From a virus: a stretch of DNA of 24,351 nt. Both the position numbers and the translations under genes were made by a program. Under the pieces are notes generated by a model, which was not told the DNA's origin, made no database searches, and saw only the letters and a program-made list of their open reading frames with translations. Of the stretch, positions 2,806 to 17,873 are shown in pieces. How positions within the stretch are numbered: the first letter of the stretch is position 1; every line of letters begins with the position of its first letter. The DNA is taken from the UHGV virus genome UHGV-0125333; one strand, written 5' to 3'.

Positions 2806-2815
2806 TTGTTAGTCC

Positions 2816-3571
2816 TTAAACTGCTAGTTGCAATTGCATTTCAAAGCGGTCGCGTTGTTCACAATACGCAAGAGAACCAGGGCTATTGTGTGCCTCAATC
2901 CGTTCTACCATTAATGCTGCGCGTGTCTCTTTACTTGCAGGTGCATAAGCCCCAGACCAGGCTTTATCAATACCGATGTTTCGAGCGACGTTCGTACTAT
3001 CTGCGCTGGCTAAGGGTAATTTTGTGAATATCAGCGGATTTAACATGCGCAATCCATGTAGTTTCGTAACCGGCTGACCATGCCCATCAACAATGTGACG
3101 AATCAGGTCTTTCATTCTGGCTACCGCAAGAGTTGGGCGCTTTACGTCATAGTCGCCACAACTACCGATAGCCACTCGCGGAAACTCATTGCACAAATGA
3201 ATAAATCGCGCGTCACTTTCATTCATGTGCCACACTGGAACGCCAGCTAGTTTTCCGTGAGGCCACTCATTCAGAAGCGCATCATTTTCCTCCTCTCCGC
3301 CATCAATAATATCCGGGATAATGGCAAAATCGAATCCTGGGTGATTCTTCCAGCGAGCAACAAACTCGTAGTAATCGCTCCAGTCGATTTTGTTTTTGCC
3401 AGCTGCTTTCCAGGCGGTGAATGCACCGTTGTCCAGCGCGAACGACTGACAGTATTCAGCCGCGAGATTGATCTGGCCTGAATGCGCAAAACTGATAAAC
3501 GCATGTCGCCCTTTCCATGCTCTCATTGCGCACGTATCAGGAGTAATAGGCCCACCGTGGTAGTGAATCAT
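2816..3571 (-). CDS. Hypothetical protein (251 aa), family not assigned
   Basis: Long ORF; ATG at 3571 lies 4 nt after the Ea22-like stop and is preceded by an AAGGAG RBS. The track ORF extends 14 codons further upstream. No family confidently recognised. Confidence 0.6.
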   Translation of the reverse strand: MIHYHGGPITPDTCAMRAWKGRHAFISFAHSGQINLAAEYCQSFALDNGAFTAWKAAGKNKIDWSDYYEFVARWKNHPGFDFAIIPDIIDGGEEENDALLNEWPHGKLAGVPVWHMNESDARFIHLCNEFPRVAIGSCGDYDVKRPTLAVARMKDLIRHIVDGHGQPVTKLHGLRMLNPLIFTKLPLASADSTNVARNIGIDKAWSGAYAPASKETRAALMVERIEAHNSPGSLAYCEQRDRFEMQLQLAV

Positions 3572-3572
3572 C

Positions 3573-3980
3573 TCACTCTCCTTTGATGCGAATGCCAGTA
3601 GCGCGGATTGCATCGATGACTTCAGAAACTTTGTATGCCATTACCGTTTGGTAATCATCGTGAAAATCTGTTCGATGAAGCATGCTGCTACGTTCCGGGA
3701 GCAGTATTTCCCGCGCTTCCAGTTCTGCAATGCGCTTTTTTGCTGCTTCCAGTTCATCCAGTAATTCCAGCACGGTAGCCGGATTAGCCTTGGCAACAAA
3801 ATCCCGGACTGGCTTACAATCAATCTCCGCAATGGGTTGATACGATGTGTAGCCATGCTGTCTTGTATAACTACCGTGACGAATAACGAAAAAATCACCA
3901 TTTATTTTTTTAGCCTGCCACTTATCTTCACCGGCTTTCTCTGCCGCTTCACGCAGTGCCTGAGAGTTAATTTCGCTCAC
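3573..3980 (-). CDS. Ead/Ea22-like protein
   Basis: 135-aa ORF starting MSEINSQALREAAEKAGEDKWQAKKINGDFFVIRHG with a coiled-coil-like ELLDELEAAKKRIAELEA segment; resembles the Ead/Ea22-like prophage family. Confidence 0.7.
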   Translation of the reverse strand: MSEINSQALREAAEKAGEDKWQAKKINGDFFVIRHGSYTRQHGYTSYQPIAEIDCKPVRDFVAKANPATVLELLDELEAAKKRIAELEAREILLPERSSMLHRTDFHDDYQTVMAYKVSEVIDAIRATGIRIKGE

Positions 3981-4198
3981 TTCGAACCTCTCTGTTTACT
4001 GATAAGCTCCAGATCCTCCTGGCAACTTGCACAAGTCCGACAACCCTGAACGACCAGGCGTCTTCGTTCATCTATCGGATCGCCACACTCACAACAATGA
4101 GTGGCAGATACAGTCTGGTAGTTCAGACGACGCATTTTTATTGCTGTGTTGCGCTGTAATTCTTCAATTTCTGATGCTGAATCAATGATGTCTGCCAT
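3977..4198 (-). CDS. TraR/DksA-family C4 zinc-finger protein
   Basis: 73-aa ORF with CxxC ... CxxC spacing (CCECGDPIDERRRLVVQGCRTCASC) typical of phage TraR/DksA zinc fingers; its stop overlaps the downstream start (ATGA). Confidence 0.8.
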   Translation of the reverse strand: MADIIDSASEIEELQRNTAIKMRRLNYQTVSATHCCECGDPIDERRRLVVQGCRTCASCQEDLELISKQRGSK

Positions 4199-4250
4199 CT
4201 TCCATTAATCCCTGAATTGTTGGTTAATACGCTTGAGGGTGAATGCGAAT

Positions 4251-4274
4251 AATAAAAAAGGAGCCTGTAGCTCC
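4251..4274 (-). terminator. Candidate intrinsic terminator within the leftward early operon
   Basis: On the minus strand, GGAGC-TACAG-GCTCC hairpin followed by TTTTTTATT, directly downstream of the ORF ending at 4297. Confidence 0.4.
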
Positions 4275-4296
4275 CTGATGATTTTGCTTTTCATGT

Positions 4297-4578
4297 TCAT
4301 CGTTCCTTAAAGACGCCGTTTAACATGCCGATTGCCAGGCTTAAATGAGTCGGTGTGAATCCCATCAGCGTTACCGTTTCGCGGTGCTTCTTCAGTACGC
4401 TACGGCAAATGTCATCGACGTTTTTATCCGGAAACTGCTGTCTGGCTTTTTTGATTTCAGAATTAGCCTGACGGGCAATGCTGCGAAGGGCGTTTTCCTG
4501 CTGAGGTGTCATTGAACAAGTCCCATGTCGGCAAGCATAAGCACACAGAATATGAAGCCCGCTGCCAGAAAAATGCAT
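4297..4578 (-). CDS. Small hypothetical phage protein (lambda orf61 position)
   Basis: 93-aa ORF; an internal ATG at 4512 (MTPQQENALRSIARQ...) is an alternative start. Start is ambiguous. Confidence 0.55.
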   Translation of the reverse strand: MHFSGSGLHILCAYACRHGTCSMTPQQENALRSIARQANSEIKKARQQFPDKNVDDICRSVLKKHRETVTLMGFTPTHLSLAIGMLNGVFKER

Positions 4579-4588
4579 TCAGTGGTTG

Positions 4589-4780
4589 TCATACCTGGTC
4601 TCTCTCATCTGCTTCTGCTTTCGCCACCATCATTTCCAGCTTTTGTGAAAGGGATGCGGCTAACGTGTGAAATTCTTCGTCTGTTTCTACTGGTATTGGC
4701 ACAAACCTGACTCCAATTTGAGCGAGGCTATGTGCCATCTCGATACTCGTTCTTAACTCAACGGGAGATGCTTTGTGCAT
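4589..4780 (-). CDS. Lambda orf63-like small protein
   Basis: 63-aa [26 protein letters not shown]...; same size and position as lambda orf63. Confidence 0.65.
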   Translation of the reverse strand: MHKASPVELRTSIEMAHSLAQIGVRFVPIPVETDEEFHTLAASLSQKLEMMVAKAEADERDQV

Positions 4781-4943
4781 ACAGCCCCCCCCATTTATTA
4801 TTTATCTCCTCAGCCAGCCGCTGTGCTTTCAGGGGATTTCGGATTACAGAAAGGCCGGGAAATACCCAGCCTCGCTTTGTAACGGAGTAGACGAAAGTGA
4901 TTGCGCCTACCCGGATATTATCGTGAGGATGCGTCATCGCCAT
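4758..4943 (-). CDS. Lambda orf60a-like small protein
   Basis: 61-aa [33 protein letters not shown]... whose start overlaps the exo stop as in lambda. Confidence 0.65.
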
Positions 4944-5614
4944 TGCTCCCCAAATACAAAACCAATTTCAGCCAGTGCCTCGTCCATTTTTTCGATGAAC
5001 TCCGGCACCATCTCGTCAAAACTCGCCATGTACTTTTCATTCCGCTCAATCACGACATAATGCAGGCCTTCACGCTTCATGCGCGGGTCATAGTTGGCAA
5101 AGTATCAGGCATCTTTTCGCGTCACCCACATGCTGTACTGCACCTGGGCCATGTAAGCCGATTTTATTGCCTCGAAACCACCGAGCCGGAATTTCATGAA
5201 ATCCCGGGAGGTAAACGGGCATTTCAGTTCAAGGCCGTTGCCGTCACTGCATAAACCATCGGGAGAGCAGGCGGTGCGCATATTTTCGTCGCGATAGATG
5301 ATCGGGGATTCAGTAATATTCACGCCGGAAGTGAATTCAAACAGGGTTCTGGCGTCGTTCTCGTACTGTTTTCCCCAGGCCAGCGCCTTAGCATTAACTT
5401 CCGGAGCCACACCGGTGCAAACCTCAGCCAGCAGGGTGTGGAAGTAGGACATTTTCATGTCAGGCCACTTCTTTCCTGAGCGGGGCTTTGCTATCACGTT
5501 GTGAACTTCTGAAGCGGTGATGACGCCGAGCCGTAATTTGTGCCATGCATCATCCCCCTGTTCGACAGCTCTCACGTCGATCCCGGTACGCTGCAGGATA
5601 ATGTCCGGTGTCAT
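4934..5614 (-). pseudogene. exo: Lambda exonuclease (Red-alpha) interrupted by a single in-frame TGA at codon 170
   Basis: The N-terminal 169 codons (5108..5614) match lambda Exo and end RKDA-TGA (5105..5107). The same frame continues without further stops for 56 codons ([20 protein letters not shown] ... GFVFGEQWR) to the normal stop at 4934..4936. Lambda has TGG (Trp) at this codon. Confidence 0.8.
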
Positions 5615-6396
5615 GCTGCCACCTTCTGCTCAGTGGCTTTCTGTTTAAGGAATCCAAGAGCTTTCACTGCTTCGGCCTGTGTCAGTTCTGACGATGCGCG
5701 AATGTCGCGGCGAAATATCTGGGAACAGAGCGGCAATAAGTCGTCATCCCATGTTTTATCCAGGGCGATCAGCAGAGTGTTAATCTCCTGCATGGTTTCA
5801 TCGTTAACCGGAGTGATGTCGCGTTCCGGCTGACGTTCTGCAGTGTATGCAGTATTTTCGACAATGCGCTCGGCTTCATCCTTGTCATAGATACCAGCAA
5901 ATCCGAAGGCCAGACGGGCACACTGAATCATGGCTTTATGCCGTAACATCCGTTTGGGATGCGACTGCCACGGCCCCGTGATTTCTCTGCCTTCGCGGGT
6001 TTTGAATGGTTCGCGGCGGCATTCATCCATCCATTCGGTAACGCAGATCGGATGATTACGGTCCTTGCGGTAAATCCGGCATGTACAGGATTCATTGTCC
6101 TGCTCAAAGTCCATGCCATCAAACTGCTGGTTTTCATTGATGATGCGGGACCAGCCATCAACGCCCACCACCGGAACAATGCCGTTCTGCTTATCAGGGA
6201 AGGCGTAAATTTCTTTCGTCCACGGATTAAGGCCGTACTGGTTGGCGACGATCAGCAATGCGATGAACTGCGCATCGCTGGCATCACCTTTAAATGCCGT
6301 CTGGCGAAGAGTGGTGATCAGTTCCTGTGGGTCGACAGAATCCATGCCGACACGTTCAGCCAGCTTCCCAGCCAGCGTTGCGAGTGCTGTACTCAT
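5611..6396 (-). CDS. bet: Red-beta single-strand annealing recombinase
   Basis: 261-aa [62 protein letters not shown]... matching lambda Bet; its stop overlaps the exo start. Confidence 0.95.
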
Positions 6397-6401
6397 CCGT
6401 T

Positions 6402-6818
6402 TTATACCTCTGAATCAATATCAACCTGGTGGTGAGCAATGGTTTCAACCATGTACCGGATGTGTTCTGCCATGCGCTCCTGAAACTCAACATCGTCATC
6501 AAACGCACGGGTAATGGCTTTTTTGCTGGCCCCGTGGCGTTGCAAATGATCGATGCATAGCGATTCAAACAGGTGCTGGGGCAGGCCTTTTTCCATGTCG
6601 TCTGCCAGTTCTGCCTCTTTCTCTTCACGGGCGATCTGCTGGTAGTGACGCGCCCAGCTCTGAGCCTCAAGACGATCCTGAATGTAATAAGCGTTCATGG
6701 CTGAACTCCTGAAATAGCTGTGAAAATATCGTCCGCGAAATGCCGGGCTGATTAGGAAAACAGGGAAGGGGGGTAGTGAATGCTTTTGCTTGATCTCAGT
6801 TTCAGTATTAATATCCAT
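6402..6818 (-). CDS. gam: Gam, RecBCD inhibitor
   Basis: 138-aa [58 protein letters not shown]... matching lambda Gam. Confidence 0.95.
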
Positions 6819-6916
6819 TTTTTATAAGCGTCGACGGCCTCACGAAACATCTTTTCATCGCCAATAAAAGTGGCGATAGTGAATTTAGTCTGGATAGCCA
6901 TAAGTGTTTGATCCAT
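6752..6916 (-). CDS. kil: Kil, host cell-division inhibitor
   Basis: Internal ATG at 6916 gives [40 protein letters not shown]..., matching lambda Kil as recalled. The track ORF extends upstream into the cIII overlap. Confidence 0.8.
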
Positions 6917-7049
6917 TTTTTGGGACTCCTGGCTGATTAAGTATGTCGATAAGGCGTTTCCATCCGTCACGTAATTTACGGGTGATTCGTTCAAGTAAAG
7001 ATTCGGAAGGGCAGCCAGCAACAGGCCACCCTGCAATGGCATATTGCAT
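6885..7049 (-). CDS. cIII: CIII, FtsH inhibitor that stabilises CII
   Basis: Hand translation of the minus strand from the ATG at 7049 gives [54 protein letters not shown] then stop. It is below the 60-aa cutoff of the ORF track. Confidence 0.85.
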   Translation of the reverse strand: MQYAIAGWPVAGCPSESLLERITRKLRDGWKRLIDILNQPGVPKNGSNTYGYPD

Positions 7050-7121
7050 GGTGTGCTCCTTATTTATACATAACGAAAAACGCCTCGAGTGAAGCGTTAT
7101 TGGTATGCGGTAACGCCGCGC

Positions 7122-7490
7122 TCAGGCGGCTTTGATAGTCATATCATCTGGATCAAATATTCCTGATGTATCGATATCGGTAATTCTTATTCCTTCGCTA
7201 CCATCCATTGGAGGCCATCCTTCCTGACCATTTCCATCATTCCAGTCGAACTCACACACAACACCATATGCATTTAAGTCGCTTGAAATTGCTATAAGCA
7301 GAGCATGTTGCGCCAGCATGATTAATACAGCATTTAATACAGAGCCGTGTTTATTGAGTCGGTATTCAGAGTCTGACCAGAAATTATTAATCTGGTGAAG
7401 TTTTTCCTCTGTCATTACGTCATGGTCGATTTCAATTTCTATTGATGCTTTCCAGTCGTAATCAATGATGTATTTTTTGATGTTTGACAT
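7122..7490 (-). CDS. ea10: Ea10 early protein
   Basis: 122-aa ORF MSNIKKYIIDYDWKASIEIEIDHDVMTEEKLHQINNFWSDSEYRL... matching lambda Ea10. Confidence 0.85.
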   Translation of the reverse strand: MSNIKKYIIDYDWKASIEIEIDHDVMTEEKLHQINNFWSDSEYRLNKHGSVLNAVLIMLAQHALLIAISSDLNAYGVVCEFDWNDGNGQEGWPPMDGSEGIRITDIDTSGIFDPDDMTIKAA

Positions 7491-7672
7491 CTATTCATAT
7501 CCTCATAGATAAAAAATCTCCCTCACACTGGAGGGCAAAGAAGATTTCCAATAATCAGAACAAGTCGGCTCCTGTTTAGTTACGAGCGACATTGCTCCGT
7601 GTATTCACTCGTTGGAATGAATACACAGTGCAGTGTTTATTCTGTTATTTATGCCAAAAATAAAGGTCACTA

Positions 7673-7873
7673 TCAGGCAGCTTTGTTGTTCTGTTTACCA
7701 AGTTCTCTGGCAATCATTGCCGTCGTTCGTATTGCCCATTTATCGACATATTTCCCATCTTCCATTACAGGAAACATTTCTTCAGGCTTAACCATGTATT
7801 CCGATTGCAGCTTGCATCCATTGCATCGCTTGAATTGTCCACACCATTGATTTTTATCAATAGTCGTAGTCAT
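7673..7873 (-). CDS. ral: Ral, restriction alleviation protein
   Basis: 66-aa ORF MTTTIDKNQWCGQFKRCNGCKLQSEYMVKPEEMFPVMEDGKYVDKWAIRTTAMIARELGKQNNKAA matching lambda Ral. Confidence 0.9.
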   Translation of the reverse strand: MTTTIDKNQWCGQFKRCNGCKLQSEYMVKPEEMFPVMEDGKYVDKWAIRTTAMIARELGKQNNKAA

Positions 7874-7943
7874 ACGGATAGTCCTGGTATTGTTCCATCA
7901 CATCCTGAGGATGCTCTTCGAACTCTTCAAATTCTTCTTCCAT
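7857..7943 (-). CDS. orf28-like acidic 28-aa peptide
   Basis: Hand translation gives MEEEFEEFEEHPQDVMEQYQDYPYDYDY then stop, overlapping the ral start by 17 nt, as lambda orf28 does. Confidence 0.45.
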   Translation of the reverse strand: MEEEFEEFEEHPQDVMEQYQDYPYDYDY

Positions 7944-8070
7944 ATATCACCTTAAATAGTGGATAGCGGTAGTAAAGATTGTGCCTGTCTTTTAACCACA
8001 TCAGGCTCGGTGGTTCTCGTGTACCCCTACAGCGAGAAATCGGATAAACTATTACAACCCCTACAGTTTG

Positions 8071-8622
8071 ATGAGTATAGAAATGGATCCACTCGTTATT
8101 CTCGGACGAGTGTTCAGTAATGAACCTCTGGAGAGAACCATGTATATGATCGTTATCTGGGTTGGACTTCTGCTTTTAAGCCCAGATAACTGGCCTGAAT
8201 ATGTTAATGAGAGAATCGGTATTCCTCATGTGTGGCATGTTTTCGTCTTTGCTCTTGCATTTTCGCTAGCAATTAATGTGCATCGATTATCAGCTATTGC
8301 CAGCGCCAGATATAAGCGATTTAAGCTAAGAAAACGCATTAAGATGCAAAACGATAAAGTGCGATCAGTAATTCAAAACCTTACAGAAGAGCAATCTATG
8401 GTTTTGTGCGCAGCCCTTAATGAAGGCAGGAAGTATGTGGTTACATCAAAACAATTCCCATACATTAGTGAGTTGATTGAGCTTGGTGTGTTGAACAAAA
8501 CTTTTTCCCGATGGAACGGGAAGCATATATTATTCCCTATTGAGGATATTTACTGGACTGAATTAGTTGCCAGCTATGATCCATATAATATTGAGATAAA
8601 GCCAAGGCCAATATCTAAGTAA
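8071..8622 (+). CDS. sieB: SieB superinfection exclusion protein
   Basis: ORF convergent with N, with hydrophobic segments (MYMIVIWVGLLLLSPDNW..., VFVFALAFSLAINV), matching lambda SieB. ATG at 8071; the track ORF starts at TTG 8068. Confidence 0.8.
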   Translation: MSIEMDPLVILGRVFSNEPLERTMYMIVIWVGLLLLSPDNWPEYVNERIGIPHVWHVFVFALAFSLAINVHRLSAIASARYKRFKLRKRIKMQNDKVRSVIQNLTEEQSMVLCAALNEGRKYVVTSKQFPYISELIELGVLNKTFSRWNGKHILFPIEDIYWTELVASYDPYNIEIKPRPISK

Positions 8623-8946
8623 CTAAGTAAGAGGAATCGATTTTCCCTTAATTTTCTGGCGTCCACTGCATGTTATGCCGCGTTCGCCAGGCTTGCTGTA
8701 CCATGTGCGCTGATTCTTGCGCTCAATACGTTGCAGGTTGCTTTCAATCTGTTTGTGGTATTCAGCCAGCACTGTAAGGTCTATCGGATTTAGTGCGCTT
8801 TCTACTCGTGATTTCGGTTTGCGATTCAGCGAGAGAATAGGGCGGTTAACTGGTTTTGCGCTTACCCCAACCAACAGGGGATTTGCTGCTTTCCATTGAG
8901 CCTGTTTCTCTGCGCGACGTTCGCGGCGGCGTGTTTGTGCATCCAT
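8623..8946 (-). CDS. N: N antitermination protein
   Basis: From the internal ATG at 8946: MDAQTRRRERRAEKQAQWKAANPLLVGVSAKPVNRPILSLNRKPKSRVESALNPIDLT..., 107 aa with the arginine-rich motif of lambda N. Confidence 0.95.
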   Translation of the reverse strand: MDAQTRRRERRAEKQAQWKAANPLLVGVSAKPVNRPILSLNRKPKSRVESALNPIDLTVLAEYHKQIESNLQRIERKNQRTWYSKPGERGITCSGRQKIKGKSIPLT

Positions 8947-9103
8947 CTGGATTCTCCTGTCAGTTAGCTTTGGTTGTGTGTGGGAGTCGTAGTCCTGAAC
9001 GAAAACACCCAGCAATGGCACATTGACAGCTAATCCGGATTCGCACTTCCGGCCAATGCTTCGTTTCGTATCACACACACCAAAGCCTTCTGCTTTGAAT
9101 GCT

Positions 9104-9134
9104 GCCCTTCTTCAGGGCTTAATTTTTAAGAGCA
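9104..9134 (-). promoter_or_regulatory. nutL (boxB hairpin plus boxA-like element)
   Basis: Plus strand reads GCCCTTCTTCAGGGC (reverse complement of lambda nutL boxB GCCCTGAAGAAGGGC) followed by TTAATTTTTAAGAGCA (boxA, one mismatch to CGCTCTTAA). Confidence 0.7.
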
Positions 9135-9178
9135 TCACCTTCATGGTGGTCAGTGCGTCCTGCTGATGGCCTAAAATA

Positions 9179-9259
9179 TACCTACAGGTAAAGCAGTTGT
9201 CTATACCTGCAGGTAAATAAAATTGATGTAAGAGTTTACCTGCTTGAATTTTCAGGTAA
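9179..9259. promoter_or_regulatory. oL/pL region with repressor operators
   Basis: Palindromes TACCTACAGGTA (9179..9190) and TACCTGCAGGTA (9204..9215), plus TTACCTG-N10-CAGGTAA (9237..9259), upstream of nutL and N. The same motif recurs in the cI-cro intergenic region. Confidence 0.55.
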
Positions 9260-9279
9260 TTAATTTTTTGGATTGATAT

Positions 9280-9300
9280 AAAAAAGCCCGCTTTGCGGGC
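9280..9300 (-). terminator. Intrinsic terminator ending the repressor operon
   Basis: On the minus strand, GCCCGC-AAA-GCGGGC hairpin followed by TTTTTT, 13 nt downstream of the ORF ending at 9313. Confidence 0.6.
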
Positions 9301-9312
9301 TGAAAGGAGATG

Positions 9313-9627
9313 TCAGAAGCTATTTGGATTGCTTGGCCATTGCGGCAATTTTGATTCTACTGGGGTGTGTTTGGGTTTGAGTCCGTTTAAGTAGTCAAGA
9401 CGCTCAATGGCGCATTTATACATAGCAATCTGCTCTGATGACATGTCGTCGTATGACATGCCTTTGAACTTTTTAATTATCGATTCTGCCTCATGTATAA
9501 GATGCTTCTTCTTCATGAGTTCAGCTGTATGCTTAGAGCTTACAGGAGATAACTTTGCCCATATGAAGCAGATGATTACAACAGCGACTACTATGCCGGG
9601 TATAAACACTTGCTGCTTTATCCTCAA
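9313..9627 (-). CDS. Small single-pass membrane protein co-transcribed with the repressor (rex-locus position); candidate exclusion or lysogeny-associated factor
   Basis: 104-aa ORF with an N-terminal hydrophobic helix (VFIPGIVVAVVIICFIWAKL). Its ATG overlaps the repressor stop (ATGA) and a terminator follows. Confidence 0.7.
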   Translation of the reverse strand: MRIKQQVFIPGIVVAVVIICFIWAKLSPVSSKHTAELMKKKHLIHEAESIIKKFKGMSYDDMSSEQIAMYKCAIERLDYLNGLKPKHTPVESKLPQWPSNPNSF

Positions 9628-10310
9628 ACTTTTGGCAGATCGTCCTGGTCTACGTACCTGGTGTGTTTCACAATAGCTGAAACAAAATGCATTTTATCAA
9701 CTTCTTCAACAGGAAGAGTGATTGGGCGGTGATCACTGTTTATGCTACTAAACTGATAATCACCGTCTCTTGTTTTGTTCATGATCTTTATCATGTTGTG
9801 ACCGTCTTTGGTCCTTACAAAGACTTCATCACCTGGATGTACTGGCGTATTTGGTTCAATAACAACATATTCTCCTGACTGAATCCTTGGCCACATGCTG
9901 TCACCCTTAACCTTCAGACCGTAAGCATCGTTATCGCCGCTGTAGATGCTTAACCAACCGGATCTGAATTCAATCATATCCACTGAGCCATCAACTCCCA
10001 AAACGGCTTCACCAATTACCGGAACAAAACCCGCACGAACGTTACCCGCAAACTCAAGATGGTCTGTAGCTCCAGCTTTACCATCTGCAAGCATGTCCAT
10101 CCATCCGCGTGGGAGATTAAAAGATTTTTCAATTAGTTCCATCATATCGTCAGCAATGCGTTTTTTTCCGCTTTTTCCTTCCGGATACAGCATTCTGGAA
10201 ACGTATGATGGTTCCCTTTCTATTCGACGAGCCAACTCTGAGGCCTTTCCATTACAGAATCGGTCTCTTATCTCTATCAGCCTTAGTCGTCTTTGTTCGT
10301 ATTTATCCAT
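9624..10310 (-). CDS. CI-like prophage repressor with C-terminal LexA/S24 peptidase-like domain (non-lambda immunity)
   Basis: 228-aa ORF divergent from the cro-like gene. The C-terminal region (GDSMWPRIQSGEYVVIEP ... DEVFVRTKDGHNMIKI) has the S24 Ser/Lys autocleavage fold pattern. Operators lie on both sides. Confidence 0.88.
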   Translation of the reverse strand: MDKYEQRRLRLIEIRDRFCNGKASELARRIEREPSYVSRMLYPEGKSGKKRIADDMMELIEKSFNLPRGWMDMLADGKAGATDHLEFAGNVRAGFVPVIGEAVLGVDGSVDMIEFRSGWLSIYSGDNDAYGLKVKGDSMWPRIQSGEYVVIEPNTPVHPGDEVFVRTKDGHNMIKIMNKTRDGDYQFSSINSDHRPITLPVEEVDKMHFVSAIVKHTRYVDQDDLPKV

Positions 10311-10330
10311 GATTTAATTCTATCTTTGAT

Positions 10331-10382
10331 TACCTGCCGGTAAATAACCTATGGGTATTGATTTGATTTTTACCTACAGGTA
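10331..10382. promoter_or_regulatory. oR/pR-pRM region with repressor operators
   Basis: TACCTGCCGGTA (10331..10342), a degenerate copy near 10346..10358 and TACCTACAGGTA (10371..10382), between the divergent repressor and cro-like genes. A GGAAGGAGA RBS precedes cro. Confidence 0.6.
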
Positions 10383-10418
10383 AACTCATCTTATTCAACA
10401 ACGGGAAGGAGATAGCAA

Positions 10419-10649
10419 ATGGAAGAACTCCGCTTGTATCTGAACTCCCTTTCACTGGAAGAGCAGAGAGAATTTGCCACCAAGTGCGGAACTTCTATCG
10501 GCTATTTGAGGAAAGCACTTAGCCGTAATCATGAATTGGGCGCAGCACTTTGTGTTCTGATTGAGAAGTTCAGCAATGGTGAAGTGACTCGCAAAGACCT
10601 TCATCCGGTTGATTGGGAAAGCATCTGGCCTGAATTAATGGCCGCTTAA
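10419..10649 (+). CDS. Cro-like HTH regulator (YdaS/Cro family)
   Basis: 76-aa ORF transcribed divergently from the repressor, with strong RBS and an HTH-like segment (ATKCGTSIGYLRKALSRN). Confidence 0.75.
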   Translation: MEELRLYLNSLSLEEQREFATKCGTSIGYLRKALSRNHELGAALCVLIEKFSNGEVTRKDLHPVDWESIWPELMAA

Positions 10650-10657
10650 GTTATTAA

Positions 10658-10689
10658 CGCTCTTACACATCCCCGCCCTGAAAAAGGGC
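10658..10689 (+). promoter_or_regulatory. nutR (boxA CGCTCTTAC and boxB GCCCTGAAAAAGGGC)
   Basis: Exact lambda-like boxA and boxB hairpin immediately downstream of the cro-like stop. Confidence 0.8.
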
Positions 10690-10765
10690 ATTACCAGAAA
10701 CAAATCTCTATGGTTTTGCGTTTCTTTGCGAAGCCAACTCTATCTAATCATTAAGGAAATTATCT

Positions 10766-11047
10766 ATGAGTACTATTGCAACTAAAAGCAAGAAAGCGGC
10801 TCGCATCGAGTCAGCCTTGCTGAACAAACTGGCACTGATGGGGCAGAAGACATTCGCTCGAGCAATGGGGGTTCCTGAATATCAGGTAAGCCGATGGAAG
10901 AATGGTTTCTTCTCGCAGGTAAGCATGATGCTGGCTGTTCTGGAATACGGAATCGAAGACGATGAAATGGCTGAGCTGACTAAGCGGCTTGCCAATTACC
11001 TGACAAAAGAAAAAGCCCCGAAGAACGGCGAATTCTTCGAGGCCTGA
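10766..11047 (+). CDS. cII: CII-like transcriptional activator
   Basis: 93-aa ORF whose ARIESALLNKLALMG ... QVSRWK ... SMMLAVLEYGIEDDEMAEL segment parallels lambda CII (ALRIESALLNKIAMLG ... QISRWK ... SMLLAVLEWGVVDDDMARL). Confidence 0.85.
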   Translation: MSTIATKSKKAARIESALLNKLALMGQKTFARAMGVPEYQVSRWKNGFFSQVSMMLAVLEYGIEDDEMAELTKRLANYLTKEKAPKNGEFFEA

Positions 11048-11081
11048 TGTAGAAAGACTGGATCAATCCACAGGAGTCATT

Positions 11082-11981
11082 ATGACAAATACAGCAAAAA
11101 TACTCAACTTCGGCAGAGGTAACTTTGCCGGACAGGAGCGTAATGTGGCAGATCTCGATGATGGTTACGCCAGACTATCAAATATGCTGCTTGAGGCTTA
11201 TTCGGGCGCAGATCTGACCAAGCGACAGTTTAAAGTGCTGCTTGCCATTCTGCGTAAAACCTATGGGTGGAATAAACCAATGGACAGAATCACCGATTCT
11301 CAACTTAGCGAGATTACAAAGTTACCTGTCAAACGGTGCAATGAAGCCAAGTTAGAACTCGTCAGAATGAATATTATCAAGCAGCAAGGCGGCATGTTTG
11401 GACCAAACAAAAACATCTCAGAATGGTGCATCCCTCAAAACGAGGGAAAATCCCCTAAAACGAGGGATAAAACATCCCTCAAATTGGGGGATTGCTATCC
11501 CTCAAAACAGGGGGACACAAAAGACACTATTACAAAAGAAAAAAGAAAAGATTATTCGTCCGAGAATTCTGGCGAATCCTCTGACCAGCCAGAAAACGAT
11601 CTTTCTGTGGTTAAACCGGATGCTGCAATTCAGAGCGGCAGTAAGTGGGGAACAGCAGAAGACCTGACCGCCGCAGAGTGGATGTTTGACATGGTGAAGA
11701 CCATCGCGCCATCAGCCAGAAAACCGAATTTTGCTGGGTGGGCTAACGATATCCGCCTGATGCGTGAACGTGACGGACGTAACCACCGCGATATGTGTGT
11801 GCTTTTCCGCTGGGCCTGCCAGGACAACTTCTGGTCCGGTAACGTGCTGAGTCCGGCCAAACTCCGCGACAAGTGGACCCAGCTCGAAATCAACCGTAAC
11901 AAGCAACAGGCTGGCGTGACAGCCGGAAAACCAAAACTCGACCTGACAAACACTGACTGGATTTACGGGGTGGATCTATGA
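11082..11981 (+). CDS. O: Replication initiator O
   Basis: 299-aa ORF MTNTAKILNFGRGNFAGQERNVADLDDGYARLSNMLLEAY... matching lambda O; it contains the ori iterons internally. Confidence 0.95.
   Translation: MTNTAKILNFGRGNFAGQERNVADLDDGYARLSNMLLEAYSGADLTKRQFKVLLAILRKTYGWNKPMDRITDSQLSEITKLPVKRCNEAKLELVRMNIIKQQGGMFGPNKNISEWCIPQNEGKSPKTRDKTSLKLGDCYPSKQGDTKDTITKEKRKDYSSENSGESSDQPENDLSVVKPDAAIQSGSKWGTAEDLTAAEWMFDMVKTIAPSARKPNFAGWANDIRLMRERDGRNHRDMCVLFRWACQDNFWSGNVLSPAKLRDKWTQLEINRNKQQAGVTAGKPKLDLTNTDWIYGVDL
11431..11560. repeat. Origin of replication inside O: four roughly 18-bp iterons followed by an AT-rich stretch
   Basis: TCCCTCAAAACGAGGGA, TCCCCTAAAACGAGGGA, ATCCCTCAAATTGGGGGA and ATCCCTCAAAACAGGGGGA, then AAAAGACACTATTACAAAAGAAAAAAGAAAAG. 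Confidence 0.85.
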
Positions 11982-12679
11982 AAAACATCGCCGCACAGAT
12001 GGTTAACTTTGACCGTGAGCAGATGCGTCGGATCGCCAACAACATGCCGGAACAGTACGACGAAAAGCCACAGGTACAGCAGGTAGCGCAGATCATCAAC
12101 GGTGTGTTCAGCCAGTTACTGGCAACTTTCCCGGCGAGTCTGGCTAACCGTGACCAGAACGAACTGAACGAAATCCGCCGCCAGTGGGTTCTGGCTTTCC
12201 GGGAAAACGGGATCACCACAATGGAACAGGTTAACGCAGGAATGCGCGTAGCCCGTCGGCAGAATCGACCATTTCTGCCATCACCCGGGCAGTTTGTTGC
12301 ATGGTGCCGGGAAGAAGCATCCGTTATCGCCGGACTGCCAAACGTCAGCGAGCTGGTTGATATGGTTTACGAGTATTGCCGGAAGCGAGGCCTGTATCCG
12401 GATGCGGAGTCTTATCCGTGGAAATCAAACGCGCACTACTGGCTGGTTACCAACCTGTATCAGAACATGCGGGCCAATGCGCTTACTGATGCGGAATTAC
12501 GGCGCAAGGCTGCCGATGAACTGACCTGTATGACAGCGCGAATTAACCGTGGTGAGACGATACCTGAACCAGTAAAACAACTTCCTGTTATGGGCGGTAG
12601 ACCTCTAAATCGTGCACAGGCTCTGGCGAAGATCGCAGAAATTAAAGCTAAGTTCGGACTGAAAGGAGCAAGTGTATGA
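11978..12679 (+). CDS. P: Replication protein P (DnaB helicase loader)
   Basis: 233-aa ORF MKNIAAQMVNFDREQMRRIANNMPEQYDEKPQVQQVAQIINGVFSQLLATFPASLANRDQ... matching lambda P; its start overlaps the O stop. Confidence 0.95.
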   Translation: MKNIAAQMVNFDREQMRRIANNMPEQYDEKPQVQQVAQIINGVFSQLLATFPASLANRDQNELNEIRRQWVLAFRENGITTMEQVNAGMRVARRQNRPFLPSPGQFVAWCREEASVIAGLPNVSELVDMVYEYCRKRGLYPDAESYPWKSNAHYWLVTNLYQNMRANALTDAELRRKAADELTCMTARINRGETIPEPVKQLPVMGGRPLNRAQALAKIAEIKAKFGLKGASV

Positions 12680-12966
12680 CGGGCAAAGAGGCAATTATTC
12701 ATTACCTGGGGACGCATAATAGCTTCTGTGCGCCGGACGTTGCCGCGCTAACAGGCGCAACAGTAACCAGCATAAATCAGGCCGCGGCTAAAATGGCACG
12801 GGCAGGTCTTCTGGTTATCGAAGGTAAGGTCTGGCGAACGGTGTATTACCGGTTTGCTACCAGGGAAGAACGGGAAGGAAAGATGAGCACGAACCTGATT
12901 TTTAAGGAGTGTCGCCAGAGTGCCGCGATGAAACGGGTATTGGCGGTATATGGAGTTAAAAGATGA
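12676..12966 (+). CDS. ren: Ren (Rex exclusion escape)
   Basis: 96-aa ORF MTGKEAIIHYLGTHNSFCAPDVAALTGATVTSINQAAAKMARAGLLVIEG... matching lambda Ren. Confidence 0.9.
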   Translation: MTGKEAIIHYLGTHNSFCAPDVAALTGATVTSINQAAAKMARAGLLVIEGKVWRTVYYRFATREEREGKMSTNLIFKECRQSAAMKRVLAVYGVKR

Positions 12967-12990
12967 CCATCTACATTACTGAGCTAATAA

Positions 12991-13020
12991 CAGGCCTGCT
13001 GGTAATCGCAGGCCTTTTTA
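12991..13020 (+). terminator. tR2-like intrinsic terminator
   Basis: CAGGCCTGC-TGGTAATC-GCAGGCCT hairpin followed by TTTTTATTT, between ren and ninB. Confidence 0.6.
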
Positions 13021-13039
13021 TTTGGGGGAGAGGGAAGTC

Positions 13040-13480
13040 ATGAAAAAACTAACCTTTGAAATTCGATCTCCAGCACATCAGCAAAACGCTATTCACGCAG
13101 TACAGCAAATCCTTCCAGACCCAACCAAACCAATCGTAGTAACCATTCAGGAACGCAACCGCAGCTTAGACCAAAACAGGAAGCTATGGGCCTGCTTAGG
13201 TGACGTCTCTCGTCAGGTTGAATGGCATGGTCGCTGGCTGGATGCAGAAAGCTGGAAGTGTGTGTTTACCGCAGCATTAAAGCAGCAGGATGTTGTTCCT
13301 AACCTTGCCGGGAATGGCTTTGTGGTAATAGGCCAGTCAACCAGCAGGATGCGTGTAGGCGAATTTGCGGAGCTATTAGAGCTTATACAGGCATTCGGTA
13401 CAGAGCGTGGCGTTAAGTGGTCAGACGAAGCGAGACTGGCTCTGGAGTGGAAAGCGAGATGGGGAGATCGGGCTGCATGA
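13040..13480 (+). CDS. ninB: NinB (Orf) recombination mediator
   Basis: From the ATG at 13040: MKKLTFEIRSPAHQQNAIHAVQQILPDPTKPIVVTIQERNRSLDQNRKLWACLGDVSRQ..., 146 aa matching lambda NinB. Confidence 0.9.
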   Translation: MKKLTFEIRSPAHQQNAIHAVQQILPDPTKPIVVTIQERNRSLDQNRKLWACLGDVSRQVEWHGRWLDAESWKCVFTAALKQQDVVPNLAGNGFVVIGQSTSRMRVGEFAELLELIQAFGTERGVKWSDEARLALEWKARWGDRAA

Positions 13481-15227: not shown

Positions 15228-15312
15228 AGTCAGAGATAACAATCAACTAATACTGTTTTGTTGATTTTTGCTTGTAATTGGCGTTCTGGTCTGAGTTTTG
15301 TGGAGTAAGTTG

Positions 15313-15690
15313 ATGCGTGATATTCAGATGGTTCTTGAGCGTTGGGGAGCGTGGGCGGCTAATAATCATGAAGATGTGACCTGGTCGTCCATTGCCGCCG
15401 GTTTTAAGGGATTAATTCCTTCAAAAGTAAAATCTCGCCCACAATGTTGTGACGATGACGCGATGATCATTTGCGGGTGCATGGCCCGTCTGAAAAAGAA
15501 CAACAGCGATTTGCATGATTTATTGGTGGACTATTATGTCGGCGGCATGACTTTTATGGCGCTTGCACGTAAGCATGGGCGATCTGATTGTTGGGTTGGC
15601 AGGATGCTTCAGAAAGCTGAGGGCGTAGTGGAGGGTATGCTGATGGTGTTGGATCTCCGATTGGAGATGGATGCTGATTGTTCGAAATAA
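15313..15690 (+). CDS. Late-gene antiterminator Q, phage-82/QuuD type
   Basis: From the ATG at 15313: [62 protein letters not shown]..., matching the QuuD/Q82 family as recalled. Confidence 0.85.
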
Positions 15691-15845: not shown

Positions 15846-16370
15846 TTATTGTTTAACCCATAATAATTCATTGACATTGAATCCCAACTTTTGAGCGGTT
15901 CGCACATAGTCTGCTTTTACTTTATCTGGAATAGTTGGGGTCCTTGCCAGAATCCATAGGTATTCTCTGTTCGGACCACTGACAAGAGCATACTTATACT
16001 CATCATCCAGTTTGATTACATTATAGCCACCATAGAAGGGGCCAAAAAACGAAACCTTCAATGCTGCAGTTTTAGTATCTCCAGTAAAGTATGCTTTACC
16101 TTCGCTCTCGCTCCATTTATTTTTCGTTGGATCGTATCCACGGTTAAGTACACGAATCCCTCCGTCGTTCCGTTTTCCATAAGTAGCGCTGACCTGTTCC
16201 AGACCACGTTCGAACCGGTTCTCGAGGCGAGCTATTTCATACCATTTTCCGAGGTAGCGGTTGGCGTCAAAATTTGTAATCGGCTGCACACCTTTAGGTG
16301 GTGTCGGGGCCTTACATGCTATAAGAGTGAAAGAGAGTGCAATGCCAGTCAACACAGGCCATAACTTCAT
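15846..16370 (-). CDS. Bacterial lipocalin (Blc-like) outer-membrane lipoprotein
   Basis: 174-aa ORF with signal peptide and lipobox (FTLIAC) and lipocalin motifs (NFDANRYLGKWYEIARLENRFERG ... KVSFFGPFYGGYNVI) paralleling E. coli Blc; a paralogue, not blc itself. Confidence 0.85.
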   Translation of the reverse strand: MKLWPVLTGIALSFTLIACKAPTPPKGVQPITNFDANRYLGKWYEIARLENRFERGLEQVSATYGKRNDGGIRVLNRGYDPTKNKWSESEGKAYFTGDTKTAALKVSFFGPFYGGYNVIKLDDEYKYALVSGPNREYLWILARTPTIPDKVKADYVRTAQKLGFNVNELLWVKQ

Positions 16371-16562
16371 AATAAATCCTGTACTTTTGATAGTTGAGAG
16401 TAAGTATGAAAGATAGATGATTACGACCGATCACTTAAAGAACTTTCATACTATATTAGGAATAGTCCATAACAGAAAAATTGTCAGTGATGACGCCAGA
16501 AAGGCAATTTATTCCGTGCACTACACAGTTTATGTGTTAATGAATTAGTCAAGGGGGAGAAT

Positions 16563-17522
16563 ATGATAAAAAAACCTGTGATTGGAATCAGCGGTTGTTT
16601 GGCCGGTTCTGCTGTTCGTTTTGATGGTGGTCACAAAAGAGCTGACTTTTTAATGGACAAATTAGTGGAATGGGTAACATTCAGACCAGTATGTCCGGAA
16701 ATGGCTATAGGGCTGCCAGTTCCGCGTCCTGCTCTACGTCTTGTGCGCTCGATGCAAGGAAATATACGGATGTGTTTCAGCCACGACCAGAATGAGGATG
16801 TGACAGAGAGAATGACAGAGTTTAGTCGTTCTTATATGGACAAATTAAAGGATGTATCGGGGTTTGTGGTTTGTGCTAAATCTCCCAGCTGTGGCATGGA
16901 GCGCGTGCGTGTCTATGATGAAAATGGTAATCGAGGTCGTAAAGATGGAGTGGGACTATTTACGAGCACTTTGATGGAAAAGTTTTCCTGGCTACCGGTT
17001 GAAGAGGATGGGCGATTACATGATCCAGTGCTTCGTGAGAATTTTGTTGAAAGAGTTTTTGCTTTGCATGAGCTCAATCACCTTTACAAGGAGAAATTAT
17101 CAAGAAGAGAGTTATTAGCTTTTCATAGTCGTTATAAGCTTCAGTTGTTGGCGCATAGTCAGGCAGGCTATAAAGATATGGGACCATTTGTGGCTGCAAT
17201 ACACGAGTGGGCGGACCTTGAATCATACTTTGAGGTGTATCGTGATAAGCTGATGGCGATTCTCAGAAAACCTGCATCACGTAAAAATCACACGAATGTG
17301 TTGATGCATATACAGGGGTATTTTAGTAACTACTTAAGTACACGCCAGCGTAAAGAGTTGAGCGAGGTTATACTTAACTATCGTTCTGGCACATTACCTC
17401 TTCTTGCGCCGTTGACTCTGCTGAAGCATTATCTGGGTGAGTATCCTAATGATTACTTGCTTACACAGAATTACTTCGATCCCTATCCGGACGAACTGGC
17501 TCTAAGACTGACGGTAAATTAA
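16563..17522 (+). CDS. DUF523-DUF1722 fusion protein (TudS-like Cys-rich N-terminal domain plus YbgA-like C-terminal domain)
   Basis: 319-aa ORF with strong RBS (AAGGGGGAGAAT). N-terminus MIKKPVIGISGCLAGSAVRFDGGHKR with further conserved Cys (PVCPEM, SPSCGMERV) as in the DUF523 family. Assigned from recall. Confidence 0.75.
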   Translation: MIKKPVIGISGCLAGSAVRFDGGHKRADFLMDKLVEWVTFRPVCPEMAIGLPVPRPALRLVRSMQGNIRMCFSHDQNEDVTERMTEFSRSYMDKLKDVSGFVVCAKSPSCGMERVRVYDENGNRGRKDGVGLFTSTLMEKFSWLPVEEDGRLHDPVLRENFVERVFALHELNHLYKEKLSRRELLAFHSRYKLQLLAHSQAGYKDMGPFVAAIHEWADLESYFEVYRDKLMAILRKPASRKNHTNVLMHIQGYFSNYLSTRQRKELSEVILNYRSGTLPLLAPLTLLKHYLGEYPNDYLLTQNYFDPYPDELALRLTVN

Positions 17523-17873
17523 TTGTATGCGATATCATCCAAAAGGATGAGTTCCTGCATGCAGGATATTTACAATCGTAAAAACTACACTATGATACCC
17601 AGAGTGTCAGTTTGTATAAAAACTCTGTTTACTCTGAAGAAACAATTGAGATGCAACTTAAAGTTGGTAAACATGCCAGTCAAAATATATAATATTATGA
17701 TTCCACGCAGCTATATATAATATAACAGATTGGTTTAATAATTTGTCTTTGTGAGTTAAATACATAATTTTATACTTGTGATGCAATGAAATTTTCCTTA
17801 TTGTTGAACTGGCGAATATTGATTTTCCACCTATACTTACCTGGTGTAACCCCAATGATATCAGGTGGATAAT

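Follow-up and report, generated by a model that had tools for sequence, protein, structure and literature searches.

Phage mEp043 (Aguilavirus mEp043; GenBank JQ182734, NC_019706 and PV340537) is listed among the phages of immunity groups separate from that of lambda (PMC3442831), and its record derives from a clear-plaque mutant (PMC9836094). Of the regulatory sites, its records mark a 'putative PL' and a CII site only, and the operators are unannotated. The repressor of phage 933W is reported to bind adjacent sites non-cooperatively, and 933W has only two OL sites (PMC3317979). In the cryptic prophage CP-933P, PaaR2 and YdaS (PDB 7nkv, 8c3k, 8co2 and 8c7k) bind the intergenic region, repress PR, PRM and PL and give bistability, and paaR2 is leaderless (PMC8630535). 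A structure is also available for the Rep repressor of Salmonella phage SPC32H (PDB 5d50). Here we compare these systems and lambda with the immunity region of virus genome UHGV-0125333, a stretch of 24,351 nucleotides that we refer to as the window.

Window positions 3939-9168 are 98.3% identical to lambda 30354-35583, with the similarity stopping at the pL transcription start, and positions 10658-13480 are 92.8% identical to lambda 38249-41084, starting just after cro. DNA comparison with lambda gave no matches between 9168 and 10658. The initial annotation had described the early genes on both sides as lambda-like, which holds for the flanks but less so for the rightward cII, whose product is only 49% identical to lambda CII. 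Its view that the repressor, the Cro-like protein and the operators are not those of lambda was borne out: the repressor shares with lambda CI only the 55-residue S24 core and has no N-terminal-domain similarity to it, and no lambda-type operator is present in the window at four or fewer mismatches. The locus falls outside imm-lambda, which is defined by 17-bp operators of the TATCACCGC type and a DNA-binding domain like that of lambda CI. The genes and associated signals of the region are:

9285..9301, minus strand, intrinsic terminator of the cI operon (stem AGCCCGCAAAGCGGGCT, then a T run)
9313..9627, minus strand, small ORF of 98-104 aa from the ORF list (phrog_10450, 'unknown function', at 1.4e-54)
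9624..10310, minus strand, cI-type repressor of 228 aa (Pfam PF00717 at 1.4e-17)
10419..10649, plus strand, Cro analogue of 76 aa with a YdaS-type helix-turn-helix (HTH) (PDB 8co2 and 8c7k at 2.4e-10)
10766..11047, plus strand, CII-type activator of 93 aa (Pfam Phage_CII at 6.8e-30)
10778-10791, minus strand, pRE-type TTGC-N6-TTGC site, also annotated in mEp043

The repressor has the architecture of a lambdoid repressor, an N-terminal four-helix HTH domain (approximately residues 1-75) followed by a C-terminal LexA-like S24 autopeptidase domain with a Ser/Lys dyad. Ser138, Lys175 and Gly94 are invariant among its homologues, and Gly94 is the probable cleavage-site glycine, which makes Ala93-Gly94 the predicted scissile bond. 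No Pfam HTH family was found in the N-terminal domain, even at E = 10. The domain models as a four-helix HTH (pLDDT 78) and, in searches with a profile of homologues, which alone yielded PDB matches for it, it resembles the DNA-binding domain of SPC32H Rep (profile E 2e-9, TM 0.72) and PaaR2 (7nkv; profile E 6.7e-6). Matches of the whole repressor to pseudoazurin entries of the PDB, obtained by single-sequence phmmer, were rejected as spurious. The Cro analogue matches phrog_35, 'transcriptional repressor', and its Pfam YdaS_toxin score lies under the gathering score (26 vs 30 bits). Taken together, the profile and phmmer searches relate the repressor DNA-binding domain to PaaR2 and the Cro to YdaS, the same pairing as in CP-933P. 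The small ORF downstream of cI, apparently in the same operon, occupies the position that rexAB holds in lambda, and its hydrophobic N-terminus is likely to be a transmembrane segment. It had zero Pfam, PADLOC or NCBIfam matches and is hypothetical in the mEp043 annotation.

cI (10310, minus) and cro (10419, plus) are divergent and 108 bp apart, with three sites overlapping the predicted pRM and pR, and on the other side OL1 and OL2 overlap or adjoin the predicted pL, with N and nutL downstream. This is the layout of a lambdoid CI/Cro switch, a divergent pair with a multipartite operator and a second operator set at pL. The initial annotation had reported palindromes on both sides of the repressor gene. 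The TACCTNNNGGTA pattern indeed forms four exact palindromes flanking the gene, two at oL and two at oR, whose outermost edges are 9179-10382, but a further site had been missed, since it emerges only when one mismatch is allowed and lies between both exact oR sites. There are thus five canonical sites, three at oR and two at oL. Seven strand-matches to TACCTNNNGGTA occur in the window, where 0.05 are expected (100 dinucleotide shuffles, none of which reached seven). The operator sites, the promoters predicted around them and one split element near pL are:

9179..9190, OL1, TACCTACAGGTA, exact match at a fixed position in related loci
9204..9215, OL2, TACCTGCAGGTA, exact match
10331..10342, OR3, TACCTGCCGGTA, exact match
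10346..10357, OR2, AACCTATGGGTA, one-mismatch match
10371..10382, OR1, TACCTACAGGTA, exact match
9175..9203, minus strand, predicted pL (-35 TAGACA 9203-9198, 17-nt spacer, -10 TATATT 9180-9175)
10317..10344, minus strand, predicted pRM from the promoter scan (-35 TTTACC 10344-10339, 16-nt spacer, -10 TAGAAT 10322-10317)
10358..10386, plus strand, predicted pR from manual reading (-35 TTGATT 10358-10363, 17-nt spacer, -10 TAAACT 10381-10386)
9237..9258, split element TACCTG-N10-CAGGTA (TACC-N14-GGTA), about 80 bp upstream of the pL start

OL1 extends from the pL spacer into the first two bases of the -10 and is centred at about -17 relative to the pL start, and OL2, 25 bp away centre to centre, adjoins the pL -35; in all related loci this spacing is 25 or 26 bp. 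OR1 is placed at pR in the same way as OL1 at pL, reaching from the spacer into the first two bases of the -10. The centre of OR2 is at about -41.5 from the predicted starts of both pRM and pR, with OR1 25 bp away on one side and OR3 15 bp away on the other, and OR3 sits within the predicted pRM (-35 and spacer), centred at about -26.5 from the cI start. The degeneracy of one OR2 half-site is family-wide, as related loci almost always read TACCnnnnGGTT (cI orientation). With the motif relaxed to TACC-N4-GGTA, the sole additional exact match in the 24 kb is an isolated TACCGTTTGGTA at 3642, approximately the chance level. The information content of the sites, taken over 47 distinct related oR regions, is concentrated in the outer TACC and GGTA (about 2 bits each), with little at the four positions in the centre. 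The 12-bp operators of the initial annotation are upheld as sites, being position-conserved over approximately 50 distinct related loci, while their invariant core narrows to TACC-N4-GGTA, and judging from these alignments t-TACC-Y-N-N-R-GGTA-a describes them better than 'TACCTnCAGGTA'. An HTH dimer would be expected to cover more than a 12-bp core, and its contacts probably reach into the flanking T/A, which is partly conserved. TTTACCTGCAGGTAAA is a candidate DNA target of the dimer of repressor N-terminal domains, in which helix 34-40 may read the TACC bases.

The predicted pL hexamers have 10 of 12 consensus matches in the promoter scan. Its +1, at approximately 9167, was mapped from lambda 35582, where the lambda homology stops, and pL is what JQ182734 annotates as 'putative PL'. 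The pR hexamers were read by eye from the sequence, with a predicted start at about 10393, and the scan made no pR call; the pR -35 (ATCAA in cI orientation) is strongly conserved across the family. At pRM, the A of the cI ATG (10310) is the seventh base past the -10, with no Shine-Dalgarno sequence, and nearly all related loci have a TAnAAT-like -10 hexamer (in some TATGAT, TAAGAT or TATGCT) 5-9 nt ahead of the ATG. The cI mRNA is predicted to be leaderless. A 'terminator-like' match at 9104-9118 was discarded, as it is the boxB hairpin of nutL, recognised by its lambda homology.

Of 52 distinct related oL regions, 26 have the split element at exactly -43 from OL2, and it is possibly an auxiliary or OL3-like site. 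Two other identities were rejected: an RNA stem-loop, as the element is located past the cI terminator and ahead of pL, and its arms vary in the related oL regions with no compensatory changes between them, and a promoter with a -10 TAAACT, as its best -35 has only 3 of 6 matches and the scan made no call. The switch proposed below leaves the split site at 9237-9258 unaccounted for.

From nutL to the end of cII (9071-11093) the window is 99% identical to mEp043. In protein alignments 227 of the 228 repressor residues are identical to those of mEp043 cI, only N127K differing, and Cro is identical. OR1-3 and OL1 are the same as in the window, OL2 differs only in its central bases, and mEp043 has the same small downstream ORF, terminator and split site. 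The initial annotation had expected the operators to allow prediction of the immunity group. With repressor, Cro and operators essentially identical, the group assigned here is that of mEp043, which PMC3442831 lists as separate from that of lambda. Outside the cassette the two phages differ, the window having lambda-type exo/bet/gam recombination genes vs Erf in mEp043, and lambda-type O/P replication genes vs O with a primase/helicase module. We consider it very probable from the sequence that 9169-10657 is an mEp043-group immunity cassette recombined into a lambda-like early region, in the style of imm434, and that it acts as a lambda-type bistable switch. Because the DNA-binding domain and operators are unlike those of lambda, heteroimmunity is expected: the immunity of a lysogen should extend to mEp043-type phages, and probably to CharmingMan, and leave it open to infection by lambda, 434, 933W and H-19B as well as by 21, phi80 and HK97. 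Near-identical cassettes (99.5-99.9%) were found in 52 of 5426 complete E. coli genomes (about 1%), and the exact repressor protein is carried on 743 contigs.

A search of other lambdoid regions for the half-site, which the initial annotation had suggested, detected it in mEp043, phage CharmingMan and IMG/VR loci, and the motif scan found TACC-N4-GGTA absent from the immunity regions of lambda, 933W and H-19B. In 80 IMG/VR loci, representing 49 distinct oR regions, the distances of the sites upstream of the ATG of the repressor gene are approximately 72-74, 47-49 and 32-34 bp, with the outer 4+4 bases invariant and the centre variable. OR2 falls below the motif in a few of these. The loci also have two sites downstream, once a GGTG half-site is allowed. 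CharmingMan (PP925830) has a repressor N-terminal domain 81% identical and a Cro 49% identical to those of the window, and it shares the TACC-N4-GGTA sites, spaced at oR by the same 25 and 15 bp, and, downstream of its repressor gene, a pair of sites of the oL type. Its C-terminal domain is unrelated to that of the window, and detectable DNA similarity is confined to the operators and the part encoding the N-terminal domain. CharmingMan lacks the split site, and its two OL sites are 26 bp apart. The operator sites thus go with the N-terminal HTH domain even where the C-terminal domain differs.

Homologues in Hafnia and Ewingella (45-52% N-terminal-domain identity, recognition helix SYVSRML) keep the motif. 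In homologues from Yersinia and from metagenomic and viral contigs (helix SVISRML) the geometry is kept and the half-sites are TACT...AGTA or mixed. SfV-type repressors (39% N-terminal-domain identity) were rejected as motif holders, having GTACC-type palindromes at other spacing. These patterns allow a wider reading, which we put forward tentatively and consider doubtful: the TACC-N4-GGTA switch would be one specificity in a broad enterobacterial repressor family with a rigid scaffold (a leaderless cI preceded at about 72, 47 and 32 bp by sites of which OR2 is weak, and two OL sites), immunity would shift by small steps, such as SYVSRML to SVISRML with TACC to TACT, and the split site TACC-N14-GGTA would be a new auxiliary repressor site replacing OL3. 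If true, the scaffold family would offer a natural series for the study of how new immunity groups arise.

We infer the binding, promoter use, activation, cleavage and immunity phenotype of the cassette as follows. A dimer of the 228-aa repressor would bind the five 12-bp sites t-TACC-N4-GGTA-a through its N-terminal HTH domain. Occupation of OR1 and OR2 would turn pR off and that of OL1 and OL2 would turn pL off, the first site of each pair overlapping the predicted -10 and spacer and the second adjoining the -35. From OR2, centred at about -41.5 relative to the cI start, which is predicted to be leaderless, the repressor would be placed for activation of pRM, as lambda CI is, and OR3, inside pRM, would serve to shut pRM off at high repressor concentration. 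The YdaS-type Cro, made from pR, would compete for the same sites, and SOS induction would proceed via RecA-stimulated self-cleavage of the S24 domain.

Cooperativity in lambda CI is mediated by the C-terminal domain. For the window repressor, the nearest characterised C-terminal S24 domain is that of 933W CI, at 64% identity. The same parts could work in the 933W manner, with independent binding at each site, an order set by intrinsic affinity, no cooperativity and no oL-oR loop in pRM control. The 933W precedent is reported to be non-cooperative on adjacent sites and to have no OL3 (PMC3317979), and the window likewise has three OR and two OL canonical sites, the same count of five operators as in 933W. 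Lambda-style cooperativity and looping are therefore not to be assumed. However, 64% identity does not fix oligomerisation behaviour, the degenerate OR2 half-site (GGTT) is conserved family-wide, as for a site that needs its neighbour's help, and the phasing of 25 bp between OR1 and OR2 and of 25/26 bp between OL1 and OL2 is conserved even where the C-terminal domain differs. We regard the 933W manner as quite plausible, if short of an even chance, and lean slightly towards cooperative binding to adjacent sites.

That the prophage is defective and its cassette a relic, no longer a working switch, appears unlikely. Cargo genes are indeed present in the window (one of them, trkG, is located between the lysis genes and those for packaging), and in a related prophage, that of strain EC1515, IS3 is inserted in P and there are several pseudogenes. 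In the window itself, however, cI, cro, cII, N, O and P are intact ORFs and the five operators and promoter hexamers are all intact; the occurrence in 52 of the 5426 E. coli genomes and on 743 contigs fits a maintained repressor, and an active repressor is expected even from defective prophages. It is highly improbable that the 12-mers are not repressor operators but chance palindromes, restriction-type sites or targets of Cro or a host factor alone, the repressor having a different target: OL2 does include the restriction-type CCTGCAGG, and neither the operator strings nor the generic motif spelling retrieved anything relevant from the searchable literature, but the enrichment excludes chance, the distances to the ATG and promoters stay constant among loci with as little as 45% N-terminal-domain identity, the outer bases are invariant and the central ones free, the motif tracks the N-terminal domain across a C-terminal-domain swap and shifts with a recognition-helix change, the sites cover the -10/-35 of all three predicted promoters, and reading of the 108-bp cI-cro spacer revealed no other repeated element.

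The prophage can be assigned to the mEp043 immunity group, and the same cassette is present in many IMG/VR contigs. The analysis adds an explicit operator motif and map, which are missing from the GenBank records and can be used for prediction of superinfection immunity, for prophage typing and as orthogonal repressor/operator parts. To the lambda paradigm it makes no conceptual addition; specialists may note the conserved split site and the divergence of specificity in small steps within the family.

In comparison with the known systems, lambda has the same gene order, N - pL/oL - (accessory gene) - cI - pRM/oR/pR - cro - cII, and likewise a tripartite oR and an S24 autocleavage domain in its repressor; for the window a leaderless cI mRNA, as in lambda, is predicted. 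The distances of OR1, OR2, OL1 and OL2 to the starts match (approximately -17, -41 and -42), as does the separation of the pR and pRM starts, about 83 bp (predicted starts in the window), and the boundaries at pL +1 and after cro are those of the imm434 and imm21 substitutions in lambda. In contrast, the core operator is 12 bp in the window and 17 bp in lambda, there are two canonical OL sites rather than three, OR2 and OR3 are 15 rather than 23 bp apart, the repressor N-terminal domain is unrelated in sequence and the Cro is of the YdaS type. 933W and H-19B have N-terminal domains only distantly homologous to that of the window repressor, with another recognition helix and other operators (the annotated 933W OR1 reads CGTACTGAAAGTACG), so the recognition domain and operators are not shared and both phages are expected to be heteroimmune to the window prophage. 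PaaR2 and SPC32H Rep, unlike the window repressor, have no S24 domain, Rep being inactivated by an antirepressor, and both have other operators, those of CP-933P being GTTTAGTAA-type 18-bp repeats. Set beside these systems, the cassette is of an already known kind, a textbook lambdoid switch whose operators are real.

Four exact matches to the 12-bp palindromic pattern TACCTNNNGGTA were found in the whole 24,351-bp window, all of them within 9179-10382, the interval assigned to the feature by the initial annotation, which corresponds to the outer edges of the outermost sites. The recurrence of the palindromes on both sides of the repressor gene, reported there, was borne out by an enrichment of 7 strand-matches vs 0.05 expected from shuffles, none of which reached 7. 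A fifth site, OR2, was overlooked there; we found it between the other two oR sites when one mismatch was allowed. The region 8700-11000 was read directly for its anatomy.

Features of the immunity region (OL1 and OL2, putative operators at the leftward promoter pL; OR1, OR2 and OR3, putative operators between cI and cro)
8623-8946, minus strand: N, with an N36 domain
9104-9118: boxB of nutL, GCCCTGAAGAAGGGC on the minus strand, by homology to lambda
9179-9190: OL1, TACCTACAGGTA, exact pattern match
9204-9215: OL2, TACCTGCAGGTA, exact pattern match
9203-9198 and 9180-9175, leftward: predicted pL, -35 TAGACA and -10 TATATT
9237-9258: split inverted repeat
9301-9285, minus strand: intrinsic terminator
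9313-9627, minus strand: ORF of 98-104 aa with a hydrophobic N-terminus
9624-10310, minus strand: repressor (cI), 228 aa, Peptidase_S24 at 1.4e-17
10344-10339 and 10322-10317: predicted pRM, -35 TTTACC and -10 TAGAAT
10331-10342: OR3, TACCTGCCGGTA, exact pattern match
10346-10357: OR2, AACCTATGGGTA, one mismatch
10371-10382: OR1, TACCTACAGGTA, exact pattern match
10358-10363 and 10381-10386: predicted pR, read by eye, -35 TTGATT and -10 TAAACT
10419-10649: Cro-like protein, 76 aa
10659-10689: nutR (boxA and boxB)
10766-11047: CII-type protein
10778-10791: pRE-type site, TTGC-N6-TTGC
from 11082 and from 11978: lambda-type O and P

The cI ATG begins at the seventh base past the pRM -10, with a Shine-Dalgarno sequence absent, so the cI mRNA is predicted to be leaderless, as in lambda. 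A plus-strand hairpin at 9104-9118 that scanned as 'terminator-like' was reassigned, from the lambda homology, to the boxB hairpin of nutL. Between nutR and cII lies a second TTGC-N6-TTGC, TTGCGTTTCTTTGC (10716-10729, plus strand), on the strand opposite to the pRE-type site; the window holds four such motifs vs 1.8 expected, which is not significant. The sole TACC-N4-GGTA outside the immunity region is a lone TACCGTTTGGTA at 3642-3653, with about 0.4 expected by chance, and nothing suggests that it has a function.

Comparison of the window with lambda 27000-48502 by BLAST delimited a block of foreign sequence. Window 3939-9168 is 98.3% identical to lambda 30354-35583, and this homology stops at the known start of the pL transcript (lambda 35582, window 9167); window 10658-13480 is 92.8% identical to lambda 38249-41084, and this homology starts a few bases past the cro stop codon. 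Between them, 9169-10657 gave no match to lambda; this supports the proposed non-lambda immunity block within lambda-like flanks, a layout that is classical for immunity substitutions such as imm434. Similarity between the repressor and lambda CI is confined to a 55-residue S24 core, and the two CII proteins are 49% identical. The operators had also been proposed to differ from those of lambda, and indeed no 17-mer anywhere in the window came within four mismatches of the lambda operator consensus. Among the other phage regions searched for the core TACC-N4-GGTA, those of mEp043 (a coliphage) and CharmingMan contain it, whereas the immunity regions of 933W and H-19B and the 21.5-kb right arm of lambda lack it.

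The repressor is mosaic: its C-terminal domain and that of 933W CI share 64% identity, whereas over its first 72 residues it is 81% identical to the repressor of phage CharmingMan, whose C-terminal domain is unlike that of the window repressor. CharmingMan carries three TACC-N4-GGTA sites upstream of its repressor gene, at spacings of 25 and 15 bp exactly as in the window, and two more downstream of it; the two DNAs can be aligned only at the oL sites and at the N-terminal-domain coding region plus oR. Scanning IMG/VR with the N-terminal domain gave 80 loci at 70-100% identity. In their 49 distinct upstream regions, sites precede the repressor ATG by about 72-74, 47-49 and 32-34 bp, the OR2 position falling below the motif in a few. 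When a GGTG half-site was allowed, related loci also had, downstream of the repressor operon, a pair of sites with a spacing of 25 or 26 bp. Each outer TACC/GGTA position carries about 2 bits of information and the four central ones little, with weak preferences for Y (position 5) and R (position 8) and partial conservation of the flanking T/A. The promoter-proximal half of OR2 is almost always degenerate (GGTT) among related loci; the pR -35 is conserved, and nearly all have a TAnAAT-like pRM -10, 5-9 nt before the ATG.

Homologues from Hafnia and Ewingella, with N-terminal domains only 45-52% identical but the same predicted recognition helix, SYVSRML, retain TACC-N4-GGTA at unchanged positions. 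A sister specificity was found in Yersinia and in metagenomic and viral contigs, where the helix reads SVISRML and the operator scaffold is kept: OR1 is TATACTCnnAAGTATA (TACT...AGTA), OR2 and OR3 have mixed TACC/TACT half-sites, and the sites precede the repressor ATG by about 71, 47 and 32 bp (loci L089, L094, L095 and L097-L101 of the comparative sets; 65/41/26 in L094). The paired changes, SYVSRML to SVISRML and TACC to TACT, look like a one-residue, one-base step between immunity types. Because the sites keep their position while their sequence shifts with the recognition helix, as operators should, the 12-mers are very likely operators, and at the level of sequence this analysis demonstrates that the motif travels with the N-terminal domain.

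Pfam recognized no HTH in that domain. A profile of 22 homologues matched the Rep DNA-binding domain of Salmonella phage SPC32H (PDB 5d50, E 2e-9) and PaaR2, the CI analogue of cryptic prophage CP-933P (PDB 7nkv, E 7e-6). Modelled with AlphaFold2, residues 1-92 form four helices (3-18, 23-29, 34-40 and 54-63; mean pLDDT 78), and Foldseek related the model to 5d50 (TM 0.72), then to C-proteins, HigA and lambda repressor. Together these results point to an XRE/lambda-repressor-like HTH fold, with helices 23-29 and 34-40 modelled as the HTH. Cro matches YdaS of CP-933P (2.4e-10). The PaaR2/YdaS pair was shown by EMSA, footprinting and reporter assays to bind its intergenic region; it represses PR, PRM and PL, generates bistability and has a leaderless repressor mRNA (PMC8630535). 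Its operators are unlike those of the window. Ser138, Lys175 and Gly94 of the S24 domain do not vary among 26 homologues, and Ala93-Gly94, aligned by eye, appears to correspond to the LexA VAA/GEP cleavage site.

Computed from mapped or predicted transcription starts, the OL1 and OR1 centres lie at about -17 and those of OL2 and OR2 at about -41.5 from the pL and pR starts; OR2 is also at about -41.5 and OR3 at about -26.5 from the pRM start, and about 83 bp separate the starts of pR and pRM. All these values equal those of lambda, except for OR3 (about -19 in lambda). A lambda-type switch is the best-supported reading: repressor dimers on OR1/OR2 and OL1/OL2 would shut off pR and pL, the OR2-bound repressor would stimulate pRM, OR3 would mediate negative autoregulation of pRM, Cro would compete for the same sites, and RecA-stimulated autocleavage would induce the prophage. 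The evidence on cooperation between neighbouring dimers is divided: conservation of the weak OR2 and of the 25-bp phasing favours it, while the 933W-like C-terminal domain speaks against it, because the 933W repressor reportedly binds adjacent sites non-cooperatively (PMC3317979). 933W, too, has only two OL sites (PMC3317979).

The split element at 9237-9258, TACCTG-N10-CAGGTA, comprises two operator-like half-sites whose separation exceeds the normal one by a helical turn, with 14 instead of 4 bases from TACC to GGTA; its centre is about 80 bp upstream from the start of pL. Of 52 distinct related oL regions, 26 have it at exactly -43 from OL2, and these are essentially all those with 25-bp OL1-OL2 spacing; one subgroup has the left half only. 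While the right arm occurs as CAGGTA, CGGGTA or GGGGTA, the left arm shows no compensating change, which favours protein half-sites over an RNA stem. The inner TGAAAWTTCAA is likewise conserved. The element may be an auxiliary repressor site in place of OL3, or the site of another factor.

The 98-104-aa ORF, whose hydrophobic N-terminus we read as a likely transmembrane segment, occupies the position of lambda rexAB, as it overlaps the cI stop codon and ends ahead of the operon terminator. Its sole match is phrog_10450 (annotated unknown function), with none in PADLOC, Pfam or NCBIfam, and the PGAP annotation of strain EC1515 omits it. The ORF is a candidate for an exclusion or conversion gene expressed by the prophage. 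Further from the immunity region, a non-lambda segment (1659-3938) lies between xis and ea22, and a moron block (15846-18605) separates the lysis genes from the Q antiterminator (15298-15690). A gene for a trkG-like Trk potassium transporter (20086-21561; TrkH family, 5e-145) is cargo between the lysis gene Rz and the gene for the terminase small subunit, an arrangement also found in 781 complete E. coli genomes.

Genes in the xis-ea22 segment and the moron block
2008-2805, minus strand: dATP/dGTP pyrophosphohydrolase and DUF551 ORF
2816-3613, minus strand: 265-aa ORF, no match in Pfam or PADLOC
15846-16370, minus strand: lipocalin-family gene
16563-17522: YbgA-like DUF1722/2-thiouracil desulfurase gene
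17865-18605: AraC-type HTH gene

Our results support the initial interpretation, and the feature is real. We add an explicit operator motif and map, which were not found in the searchable literature or GenBank annotations, along with the link between motif and N-terminal domain, the fifth site OR2 and the split element. By megablast of 9100-10700 against the phage collection, full-length matches were obtained only to mEp043 (three records, 99.4% identity), and the common block spans 9071-11093 at 99.0% identity. mEp043 is listed with phages whose immunity groups differ from that of lambda (PMC3442831). Cro is identical and cI differs by one residue, N127K (codon 9930-9932; Asn in the window, Lys in both mEp043 records); the mEp043 that was sequenced was a clear-plaque mutant (PMC9836094), the stated origin of one of those records. 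OR1, OR2, OR3 and OL1 are identical and OL2 differs only at central bases; annotation of the mEp043 records covers a 'putative PL' and a CII site, but not the operators. The cassette is present at 99.5-99.9% identity in 52 of 5426 complete E. coli genomes, and the exact repressor protein on 743 contigs. The feature is the immunity region of a phage whose isolation, assignment to an immunity group and sequencing date back years, and it has a textbook lambdoid architecture.
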